This document shows, one piece after another, positions 36,629 to 37,506 of a DNA stretch of 64,000 nucleotides. The position numbers and the translations under genes were made by a program. Numbering within the stretch: the first letter of the stretch is position 1; each line of letters begins with the position of its first letter. Source of the DNA: Escherichia coli (lineage in GTDB: Bacteria > Pseudomonadota > Gammaproteobacteria > Enterobacterales > Enterobacteriaceae); assembly GCF_003334405.1 (NCBI RefSeq), contig NZ_QOWM01000001.1, one strand, 5' to 3'. The notes beneath the pieces were generated by a model. That model was not told the DNA's origin. It worked only from the letters and a program-made list of their open reading frames with translations, and made no database searches.

Positions 36629-36792
36629 TGCTAACAGCCTATCCTATCAGGCTATTTTATTTGTCAGTTCGGCCCCGGGCAGTGCTCGAAATCTTCACGT
36701 ACGATATGTACGCTCCGGTTTCTCCGCGCTGTCCATGTCCAGACTGTCTGCAACAATTACGCCCACTGGGATAGGCTTTAAGTCTGGTGAAT

Positions 36793-37506
36793 ATGCGACA
36801 CATTTTTCAACGATTATTGCCCCGACGGCTGTGGCTGGCAGGGCTGTCATGTCTGGCATTGCTGGGTTGCGTGCAGAATCACAATAAGCCAGCCATTGAT
36901 ACGCCAGCAGAAGAAAAAATTCCGGTTTATCAACTGGCTGACTATCTTTCTACTGAATGTAGCGACATCTGGGCGCTGCAAGGTAAATCAACCGAAACCA
37001 ATCCGCTTTACTGGCTGCGGGCGATGGATTGTGCTGATCGTTTAATGCCTGCGCAGTCGCGTCAGCAAGCTCGCCAATATGACGACGGCAGCTGGCAAAA
37101 TACCTTTAAACAAGGGATTTTGCTCGCCGACGCCAAAATTACGCCGTATGAGCGCCGCCAGCTGGTCGCGCGTATTGAAGCGTTAAGTACCGAGATCCCG
37201 GCACAGGTTCGCCCACTGTATCAACTCTGGCGCGATGGTCAGGCGCTGCAACTGCAACTGGCGGAAGAGCGCCAACGTTACAGTAAACTCCAGCAGTCCA
37301 GCGACAGCGAGCTGGATACATTGCGCCAGCAACATCACGTTCTACAGCAGCAACTGGAACTCACCACCCGCAAGCTGGAAAACCTGACCGATATTGAACG
37401 CCAGCTCTCGACCCGCAAACCGGCTGGAAATTTCTCGCCGGATACGCCGCACGAGAGTGAAAAGCCCGCGCCATCCACCCATGAGGTCACTCCTGATGAG
37501 CCATAA
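36793..37506 (+). CDS. qseG: outer-membrane lipoprotein QseG (accessory component of the GlrK/GlrR system)
   Basis: 237 aa from MRHIFQRLL...; lipobox LALLGC; coiled-coil-like Q-rich region. Confidence 0.9.
   Translation: MRHIFQRLLPRRLWLAGLSCLALLGCVQNHNKPAIDTPAEEKIPVYQLADYLSTECSDIWALQGKSTETNPLYWLRAMDCADRLMPAQSRQQARQYDDGSWQNTFKQGILLADAKITPYERRQLVARIEALSTEIPAQVRPLYQLWRDGQALQLQLAEERQRYSKLQQSSDSELDTLRQQHHVLQQQLELTTRKLENLTDIERQLSTRKPAGNFSPDTPHESEKPAPSTHEVTPDEP

Follow-up and report, generated by a model that had tools for sequence, protein, structure and literature searches.

In the 64,000-nucleotide stretch of Escherichia coli DNA analysed here (the window), positions 36793-37506 hold the E. coli K-12 gene qseG (yfhG), which lies second of three in the operon qseE(glrK)-qseG-qseF(glrR). 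Its lipoprotein product has a published function, and its translation probably facilitates that of the regulator gene behind it. We put the probability of this reading at about 0.9, and nothing seen here speaks against the gene's identity or its published function. Across the region the window DNA is 100% identical to that of E. coli K-12 MG1655, and the gene names and order proposed from the sequence alone (glmY, glrK, qseG, glrR, glnB) are borne out by annotation, HMMs, solved structures and the literature (Table 1). The position of qseG, the structure of its product and its role as an activator of QseE are all already known; what is new is a survey of overlap length at the qseG/glrR junctions of 78 species and the recognition of the glrK-qseG spacer as a MITE. 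The result matters little as a discovery and is useful as a calibration: the start coordinate of qseG is corrected, the 11-nt overlap between qseG and glrR proves to be one lineage's version of a widespread stop/start overlap that goes with a conserved Shine-Dalgarno (SD) sequence, and a proposed feedback loop turns out to be experimentally excluded in K-12.

Table 1. Features of the qseG locus and its surroundings, in window coordinates.
Feature	Position	Strand	Source or remark
Three GlrR/QseF upstream activating sites (UAS), TGTC-N10-GACA	34729-34746, 34762-34779, 34825-34842	+	motif scan
sigma54 promoter of glmY, TGGCAC-N5-CTGCA (TGGCACagttaCTGCA)	34932-34947	+	single match in window
glmY small RNA gene, 184 nt	34959-35142	+	NC_000913.3 ncRNA annotation; Rfam RF00128
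glmY terminator hairpin, GCCGGG-TAATT-CCCGGC + TTTGTTG	35120-35143	+	read from sequence
glrK/qseE sensor histidine kinase, TTG start, 475 aa	35201-36628	+	RefSeq annotation; histidine-kinase HMM matches
MITE-like palindromic repeat, 144 nt, glrK-qseG spacer	36635-36778	.	inverted arms, fold, dispersed copies
qseG (yfhG) CDS, 237 aa + stop	36793-37506	+	annotation, HMMs, structure
QseG lipoprotein signal peptide with lipobox LLG/C	36793-36870	+	translation; Cys26 codon TGC 36868-36870
QseG Q-rich long helix (about residues 141-190) and tip RKLENLTDIERQLSTRK (193-209)	37213-37419	+	
QseG variable Pro/Ser/Glu-rich C-terminal tail, residues 210-237	37420-37503	+	DNA carries glrR ribosome-binding site
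glrR SD core GAGG, 9 nt before ATG	37483-37486	+	
Overlap of qseG 3' end and glrR 5' end, 11 nt, ATGAGCCATAA	37496-37506	+	
glrR/qseF sigma54-dependent response regulator, 444 aa	37496-38830	+	annotation; NCBIfam NF011695
glnB (PII), conserved downstream neighbour	38891-39229	+	annotation

The sequence-only reading had begun qseG at 36629, which is the first base past the glrK stop codon. Counted from there to 37506, the range spans 878 nt, not a multiple of 3, and a TAG at 36772-36774 in the qseG frame rules out a start at or near 36629. The true gene begins at 36793, and published primers take the ATG at this position as +1 of qseG. The 164 nt in between (36629-36792) are intergenic and non-coding, and are filled by a dispersed repeat.

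Profile matches place both products in their expected families. QseG scores 359.2 bits against NCBIfam NF007997 (cut-off 234) and reaches 1.8e-80 against Pfam PF13942 over model positions 1-174 of 175, while the glrR product scores 982 bits against NCBIfam NF011695 (cut-off 763). Three structures of QseG have been solved (7x6f, 9m06 and 9m08), and PDB 7x6f is nearly identical to the translated protein over residues 55-209, the one mismatch falling at the first aligned position. The claim that QseG is a lipoprotein is borne out by the lipobox LLG/C26 with Val at the +2 residue; in an alignment of 19 QseG sequences C26 is invariant and L23 and G25 are nearly so, the call being made from translation and alignment rather than with a dedicated signal-peptide predictor. 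The glutamine-rich helical region was also seen correctly, as the protein contains 25 Q in 237 residues and 9-10 Q per 40 residues from roughly 141 to 190. Beyond this region, L198, E202 and R208 are invariant across 48 QseG homologues and R203 and K209 are conserved at 90% or more in the alignments. These five residues correspond to L209, E213, R219, R214 and K220 of Salmonella QseG (L198, E202, R208, R203 and K209, respectively), an offset of 11 that fits the lipobox cysteines (Cys37 in Salmonella, Cys26 in E. coli). Salmonella L209, E213 and R219 were mutated in the study of Gong et al. 2025 (PMC12691602), which also reports a cryo-EM complex with a two-helix stalk and the residues in contact with QseE. 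Residues 210-237 form a tail that is poorly conserved in the 19-sequence alignment and lies outside the crystallised constructs.

The locus is the very same as that of the QseE/QseG/QseF systems described in K-12, EHEC and Salmonella (Gopel & Gorke 2018, PMC6075780; PMC12691602), with gene order, lipobox, tip residues and a glmY target bearing three UAS and a sigma54 promoter in common, and nothing differs. Experiments in these organisms have established the outer-membrane localisation of QseG and its activation of QseE autophosphorylation (PMC6075780, PMC12691602). In the mechanism shown in the literature, the N-terminal part of QseG forms a small helical globule, and the Q-rich C-terminal helix joins that of a second QseG copy in a long parallel stalk. 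The conserved stalk tip, RKLENLTDIERQLSTRK, straddles the periplasmic four-helix-bundle sensor domain of QseE/GlrK and stimulates autophosphorylation, after which phospho-GlrR activates the sigma54 promoters of glmY and rpoE P2. QseG is, as already published, the third component of the QseE/QseF signalling system and the activating partner of the kinase, and this is the reason that its gene sits between those of the kinase and the regulator.

Accessory envelope proteins that steer sensor kinases include NlpE and CpxP, which act with CpxA, and RcsF, which acts with the Rcs phosphorelay. Like them, QseG is an envelope protein outside the kinase/regulator pair that modulates the kinase and couples the state of the envelope to signalling. 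Unlike RcsF and NlpE, which are encoded elsewhere, it is encoded inside the two-component operon itself and is an obligatory activator that works through a periplasm-spanning coiled-coil stalk.

The insertion of qseG between glrK and glrR, the starting point of the earlier reading, holds well beyond the window. A synteny comparison found the order histidine kinase, qseG, response regulator, glnB in 80 of 80 related loci, all from Enterobacteriaceae and found with the close 19-sequence QseG alignment. The literature extends the synteny to Beta-proteobacteria and Acidithiobacillia. Among distant taxa, sampled here through four homologue look-ups alone, the four QseG homologues (five contigs) likewise lie in kinase-qseG-regulator order.

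Short stop/start overlaps in bacterial operons (ATGA, TAATG and longer forms) are associated with translational coupling, and the qseG/glrR junctions resemble such overlaps in general, with a same-strand overlap of 1-14 nt and the SD sequence inside the 3' end of the upstream gene. The 11-nt overlap in the window was read correctly, the glrR ATG lying at 37496-37498 and the qseG stop TAA at 37504-37506, and its length is rarer than 1 or 4 nt among operon overlaps. All 78 intact Enterobacteriaceae junctions have a stop/start overlap, more than expected by chance, measuring 4 nt in 49 of them, 14 nt in 14, 1 nt in 8, 11 nt in 6 and 8 nt in a single case. Two NCTC assemblies (L034 and L077) were left out of this count on account of gaps at the junction and several genes split in tblastn, which are probable frameshift errors. 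The 11-nt form is found only in Escherichia among the 78 and represents the Escherichia-specific version of a stop/start overlap that spans the Enterobacteriaceae; the length itself looks like a lineage-specific accident rather than a conserved feature. A reading of the junction sequences, as distinct from a dedicated alignment or ancestral reconstruction, suggests that the 11-nt form came about when a single nucleotide was lost directly ahead of the ancestral stop (CCATGATG to CCTGATG), a change that would have lengthened QseG by Asp-Glu-Pro. Gene overlaps of this locus were already drawn in PMC8745638 (Fig. 1A legend).

The overlap had been taken to suggest translational coupling, and as far as the sequence goes coupling between qseG and glrR is a plausible and reasonable inference. 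In its strict form, coupling would restrict glrR translation wholly or largely to ribosomes coming directly from termination on qseG and so fix the QseG:GlrR ratio, and this we consider unlikely. It is favoured by the overlap at every intact Enterobacteriaceae junction and by a small local hairpin that can pair the AGG of the SD sequence with CCU. This hairpin, however, is not conserved in the junction sequences of other genera, and no significant RNA structure was found at the junction, which folds no better than shuffled sequence (z = +0.57). Obligatory coupling further implies a downstream start without an accessible ribosome-binding site of its own, and glrR has one: all 78 junctions carry an SD core ahead of glrR, with the G at -11 conserved at 95%, and in the window the well-spaced GAGG (-6.3 kcal/mol) is the strongest SD sequence of the operon. 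More distant relatives have gaps of 15-20 nt in place of the overlap, and global proteomics quoted in PMC6075780 gives 36 copies per cell of QseF against 11 of QseG, a comparison that could be biased against a lipoprotein. In the published delta-qseG and qseG-3xFLAG alleles (primers BG768 and BG1306), the qseF ATG directly follows an artificial AGGAGG from the Datsenko-Wanner P2 site, and QseF is functional from this SD sequence, uncoupled from qseG. Our literature search found no paper testing coupling at the native qseG/glrR junction. Given the strong and conserved SD sequence, the unstructured junction, the gaps in distant relatives and the greater abundance of QseF, coupling is probably not obligatory. 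Facilitated coupling is the form we prefer: ribosomes finishing qseG probably help the translation of glrR, which would not depend on them because its own conserved SD sequence is kept in the qseG tail. An in-frame ATG further upstream, at 37481, was rejected as the glrR start, as it has no SD sequence (-0.1 kcal/mol) and other genera conserve only the GAGG part of ATGAGG.

Upstream of the operon, the proposal that GlrR targets the glmY promoter is supported by its sites, by the sigma54 promoter and by the literature. The glmY RNA matches Rfam RF00128 at 34959-35106 with 146 bits (gathering score 33), and the sigma54 promoter ends 12 nt before its 5' end; overlapping sigma54 and sigma70 promoters have been reported at this gene. 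The motif TGTC-N10-GACA occurs only three times in the 64 kb (at 34729, 34762 and 34825), against 0.73 sites expected by chance, and three UAS upstream of glmY are described in PMC6075780. From this arrangement the sequence-only reading had drawn a compact feedback-capable unit, which published experiments contradict for K-12 (PMC6075780).

Such positive feedback would require sigma54 transcription of glmY, driven by GlrR, to read through into glrK-qseG-glrR, so that the system amplifies itself. The three GlrR sites, the sigma54 promoter and the position of glmY directly upstream of the operon, whose first start codon lies 59 nt past the glmY end, are all compatible with it, and in Proteus mirabilis glmY-qseEGF is indeed a single QseF-dependent operon (PMC8745638). 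The Proteus locus shares its genes and their order with E. coli and likewise has QseF sites ahead of glmY, but there glmY lacks a terminator and qseE has no separate promoter, which is why the whole unit is autoregulated by QseF. In E. coli K-12, by contrast, glmY terminates, its 3' end forming a GC-rich hairpin with a run of T behind it, and qseEGF has a sigma70 promoter of its own, 25 bp ahead of qseE (PMC6075780). The same study found virtually no read-through from glmY into qseEGF by RT-PCR; qseE'-lacZ activity was equal with or without the glmY locus and unaffected by deletion of qseF or qseG; and over-activation of the system left the level of QseG-3xFLAG unchanged, so that qseEGF is without transcriptional autoregulation in K-12. 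Of the two marks of an autoregulated operon, regulator sites at the upstream promoter are present here and transcription continuing into the regulator's own operon is not. Positive feedback is thus largely refuted and extremely improbable for K-12, where the adjacency of glmY closes no transcriptional feedback loop.

A further alternative places a promoter within the operon, either between glrK and qseG or in qseG itself, from which glrR, or qseG and glrR together, would be expressed independently of glrK and of operon transcription. QseE was undetectable while QseG and QseF were detected in PMC6075780, whose authors considered a 'hypothetical internal promoter' between qseE and qseG, and an outward promoter could have come in with the 164 nt of the spacer, which are foreign DNA. 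Low QseE may, however, also be accounted for by the TTG start and weak SD sequence of its gene, and a scan of the + strand from 34600 to 39300 returned no sigma70-like site matching at 9 or more of 12 positions. A relaxed scan of 36600-37520 gave only 8/12 sigma70 matches at the glrK 3' end and weak sigmaE- and sigma54-like matches, none of them convincing. Expression from an internal promoter seems very unlikely.

The repeat within the spacer is flanked on both sides by TAA (36632-36634 and 36779-36781), a 3-bp duplication, and its terminal inverted arms CTAACAGCCTATCC and GGATAGGCTTTAAG are 14 nt long and 86% complementary; it has no coding capacity. In E. albertii the site is empty, reading ...ATGCTAAGTCTGG... 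against ...ATGCTAA (144 nt) TAAGTCTGG... in E. coli. With terminal inverted repeats ending in AGCCTATCC, a target-site duplication with an empty counterpart, and dispersed copies, the element has the hallmarks of a MITE. The number of places it occupies per E. coli genome has a median of 5 and reaches at most 8, and copies also occur in many other enterobacterial genera and on plasmids. K-12 has a second copy between ycbX and rlmL, which aligns with the others, and no further copy was found in the 64-kb window.

The element resembles the MITE-like intergenic repeats of enterobacteria (ERIC/IRU and RSA): it is palindromic and 144 nt long, bears terminal inverted repeats between duplicated 3-bp flanks, and numbers about 5-6 copies per genome. 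Table 1 of PMC5172473 lists an 'RSA' repeat of the K-12 GenBank record with 150/151 bp and 6 copies, and our guess is that this is the same repeat; a literature search found no paper giving RSA coordinates, and NC_000913.3 has no repeat feature at either the glrK-qseG spacer or the ycbX-rlmL copy. Between 36560 and 37600, every Rfam match at E <= 1 fell below threshold (sX9 at 29.4 bits against a threshold of 44, isrL at 14.4 against 35), and we treated these matches as chance.

Comparison with the empty site indicates that the MITE insertion split an ancestral overlap of the glrK stop and qseG start (TAATG). It parted the ancestral ATG from the rest of qseG. Elsewhere in the Enterobacteriaceae the first start codon in frame with qseG mostly shares 4 nt with the glrK stop or falls no more than about 20 nt away. 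The element may have a function in its present place, its hairpin, or a small leading hairpin with a U run, partly terminating transcription, holding back RNases or uncoupling translation and so altering the ratio of GlrK to QseG and GlrR relative to species with abutting or overlapping genes. In addition to the displaced start, this possibility draws on a strong and significant fold, as the spacer reaches -59 kcal/mol against -44.4 +/- 4.0 for shuffled sequences (z = -3.65) and the repeat alone -56.2 kcal/mol, and on a site that is filled in 5426 of 5426 complete E. coli genomes. Yet presence in every genome may simply go back to a neutral insertion made long ago, K-12 has a fully working system, and with 5 pairs and -6 kcal/mol the terminator-like hairpin is weak; we regard a functional role as rather unlikely.

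A fuller account, which we hold to be improbable taken as a whole, is that in the E. coli lineage the MITE landed on the TAATG overlap, cut off the original start and six residues (MLSLVN), and placed a hairpin of about -56 kcal/mol between the kinase and lipoprotein cistrons that may alter the GlrK : QseG : GlrR ratio. If this were so, whether through uncoupling, partial termination or stabilisation of the mRNA, envelope signalling in E. coli would run at a different stoichiometry from that of its relatives. Apparently unremarked until now, the MITE between glrK and qseG is a minor feature that could concern those who engineer or quantify the operon. The insertion, counting the 144 nt and the TAA duplication, measures 147 nt or exactly 49 codons and is in frame; in E. 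whittamii it is open, which makes a longer QseG precursor conceivable in that species.

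The region 34640-38900 is identical (100%) to that of Escherichia coli K-12 MG1655 and was found in 5,426/5,426 complete E. coli genomes. It is a real and thoroughly characterised locus, correctly named in the sequence-only reading and already known. GlrK (QseE) scores below every NCBIfam equivalog cut-off, with CreC as its top match (141 bits versus 356). Its TTG start is preceded by a weak Shine-Dalgarno (SD) sequence (-3.4 kcal/mol), and these two features alone may account for QseE being reported as undetectable in proteomics.

Features of the qseEGF locus (window positions; gene coordinates are the RefSeq annotation mapped onto the window)
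Feature	Position	Remarks
purL	end at 34643	
glmY	34959-35142	Rfam RF00128, 146 bits
glrK/qseE	35201-36628	TTG start
MITE-like palindromic repeat	36635-36778	144 nt; TAA flanks 36632-36634 and 36779-36781 (3-bp duplication); folds at about -56 to -59 kcal/mol
qseG	36793-37506	
glrR/qseF	37496-38830	NF011695, 982 bits versus cut-off 763
glnB	38891-39229	

The position of qseG between the kinase and regulator genes, singled out as unusual, is explained by the published function of its product. The gene itself is shorter than proposed: position 36629, taken as its start, directly follows the last base of the glrK stop, the length of 36629-37506 is not divisible by three, and a TAG lies in the qseG frame at 36772-36774. 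The true start at 36793 is the same ATG that serves as +1 in published qseG primers. The product is indeed a lipoprotein precursor, with a lipobox (LLG followed by C26), and matches NCBIfam NF007997 (359 bits, cut-off 234) and Pfam PF13942 (1.8e-80). The Q-rich region is also present, with 9-10 Gln per 40 residues at about 141-190. Residues 55-209 are essentially identical to PDB 7x6f, to which 9m06 and 9m08 are related entries. In the cryo-EM structure, the C-terminal helices of the QseG dimer form a two-helix stalk whose tip straddles the QseE sensor dimer, and the Salmonella residues contacting QseE are L209, E213, R214, R219 and K220 (PMC12691602). Numbering is offset by 11 (Salmonella Cys37 is E. 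coli Cys26), which places these residues at L198, E202, R203, R208 and K209, precisely the invariant or near-invariant columns in alignments of homologues down to 23% identity. The stalk is therefore formed by the Q-rich "coiled coil", and its kinase-binding tip by the conserved motif RKLENLTDIERQLSTRK. The remaining tail (210-237) is variable, rich in Pro, Ser and Glu and outside the crystallised constructs; its DNA holds the glrR ribosome-binding site.

The overlap of 11 nt between qseG and glrR is as described, with the qseG stop TAA at 37504-37506 and the glrR ATG at 37496-37498. In a survey of one genome per species, the order kinase-qseG-regulator-glnB was kept in 80/80 Enterobacteriaceae loci. 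Two NCTC assemblies with several split locus genes were left out of the junction tally, leaving 78 junctions, the window included. In these two, Leclercia adecarboxylata NCTC13032 and Citrobacter koseri NCTC10786, glrK, qseG and glrR each appear split in tblastn, which suggests assembly indel errors and not real pseudogenes. The genes overlap at 78/78 junctions, by 4 nt in 49, 14 nt in 14, 1 nt in eight, 11 nt in six (Escherichia only) and 8 nt in one. Comparison of the Citrobacter junction (…ACGCCATGATGAGCC…) with that of E. coli (…ACTCCTGATGAGCCATAA…) suggests that the 11-nt form arose by a 1-nt deletion right before the ancestral qseG stop. Such a deletion would extend QseG by Asp-Glu-Pro, to end at the next in-frame TAA within glrR codons 3-4. 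More distant homologues (27-46% identity) retain the gene order; at their junctions the genes overlap by 4 nt, are separated by 15 or 20 nt or, in one case, are called as overlapping by 41 nt, with a start that is possibly miscalled. One such relative (L089) carries a nadE-like gene with CN_hydrolase and NAD_synthase domains (locus positions 6270-7886) between the regulator gene and glnB, and otherwise keeps the order purL-kinase-qseG-regulator-glnB-hmp. The overlap is an ordinary operon feature, and its exact length a lineage accident.

The overlap had been taken to suggest translational coupling. The SD of glrR (GAGG, 37483-37486) has the strongest anti-SD pairing of the operon, at -6.3 kcal/mol. 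A core GAGG, GGAG or AGGA lies 4-16 nt 5' of the glrR ATG at 78/78 junctions, and the G at -11 is 95% conserved within a QseG tail that is not. An in-frame ATG upstream, at 37481, lacks an SD and was rejected as a start. The junction RNA does not fold better than shuffled sequence (z = +0.57). A single cell is quoted as containing 11 QseG and 36 QseF molecules (PMC6075780). In the delta-qseG and qseG-3xFLAG alleles, the qseF ATG directly follows an artificial AGGAGG from the Datsenko-Wanner P2 site (primers BG768 and BG1306; PMC6075780). QseF is functional when uncoupled in these strains, in which the junction is artificial and not native. Obligatory coupling, by which glrR would be translated only through qseG, is unlikely; initiation on glrR may nonetheless be helped by ribosomes terminating on qseG.

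The locus had further been read as a feedback unit acting through glmY, and the sequence features cited for this do exist. TGGCAC-N5-YTGCW has a single match in 64 kb, just upstream of glmY, and the window's three TGTC-N10-GACA sites (0.73 expected by chance) all lie within 114 bp further upstream. Transcriptional feedback in K-12, by contrast, is experimentally excluded: qseE'-lacZ fusions are unaffected by deletion of qseF or qseG or by the whole glmY locus placed upstream, QseG-3xFLAG levels stay constant when the system is over-activated, and qseEGF is transcribed from a sigma70 promoter of its own, 25 bp upstream of qseE (PMC6075780). The 3' end of glmY (35120-35143) carries a GC-rich hairpin with a T run behind it, and read-through from glmY "does virtually not occur" (PMC6075780). 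Proteus mirabilis, however, lacks both the terminator and the separate promoter, and there glmY-qseEGF forms a single QseF-dependent operon (PMC8745638). The feedback proposal thus holds for a relative but not for this genome.

The stretch 36629-36792 is a spacer and folds at -59 kcal/mol, compared with -44.4 +/- 4.0 for shuffles (z = -3.65). The repeat within it, a minor new detail of the glrK/qseG junction, has 14-nt inverted arms and a median of 5 copies per E. coli genome, with up to 8. The site is empty, with a 17-nt spacer (…AATAATGCTAAGTCTGGTGAATATG…), in E. albertii and a second Escherichia genome; the filled site, 144 nt between duplicated TAA triplets, occurs in E. coli, E. whittamii and two further Escherichia species. 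A junction-spanning query was covered at least 80% in 5,426/5,426 complete E. coli genomes. Promoter scans found no convincing promoter within the spacer. Within the central hairpin of the repeat, 36697-36763 (plus strand) matches the Xanthomonas sRNA sX9 in Rfam below threshold (29.4 bits versus gathering 44, E = 0.0037), probably a chance likeness between hairpins.

The repeat inserted at an ATG (TAATG, 36628-36630) that overlaps the glrK stop in frame with qseG. Many Enterobacteriaceae show a 4-nt overlap between the glrK stop and the first qseG start in frame. E. albertii qseG can encode MLSLVN-MRHIF…, and other genera have MNLSLVSM…. Six ancestral residues, MLSLVN, thus seem to be missing from the N-terminus of E. 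coli QseG (loci compared from other genomes: L005 5836-6030 and L007 5983-6030). The 147-nt insertion is exactly 49 codons; its frame is shut in K-12 by the single TAG and open in E. whittamii, where it could add 55 residues to QseG.

A second K-12 copy, with TTAG on either side, lies between ycbX and rlmL (NC_000913.3 1007601-1007843; L086 3602-3844); RefSeq NC_000913.3 carries no repeat feature at either site. Further copies occur between glrR and glnB in Raoultella ornithinolytica (L036 8077-8226) and, in another enterobacterium (L057), at 4397-4547 between glmY (4178-4325) and glrK (4568). Citrobacter amalonaticus S646 has a different insertion of ~200 nt at the same glrK/qseG junction (L008, about 5777-5990), partially similar over 61 nt. 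From these placements, the short intergenic junctions of the locus look like recurrent insertion targets. Related copies are found in plasmid-collection records from Pantoea, Klebsiella, Citrobacter, Salmonella and others. In length and copy number the element agrees with "RSA", a repeat listed in the old K-12 annotation (150/151 bp, 6 copies; PMC5172473), and it may be identical with it.
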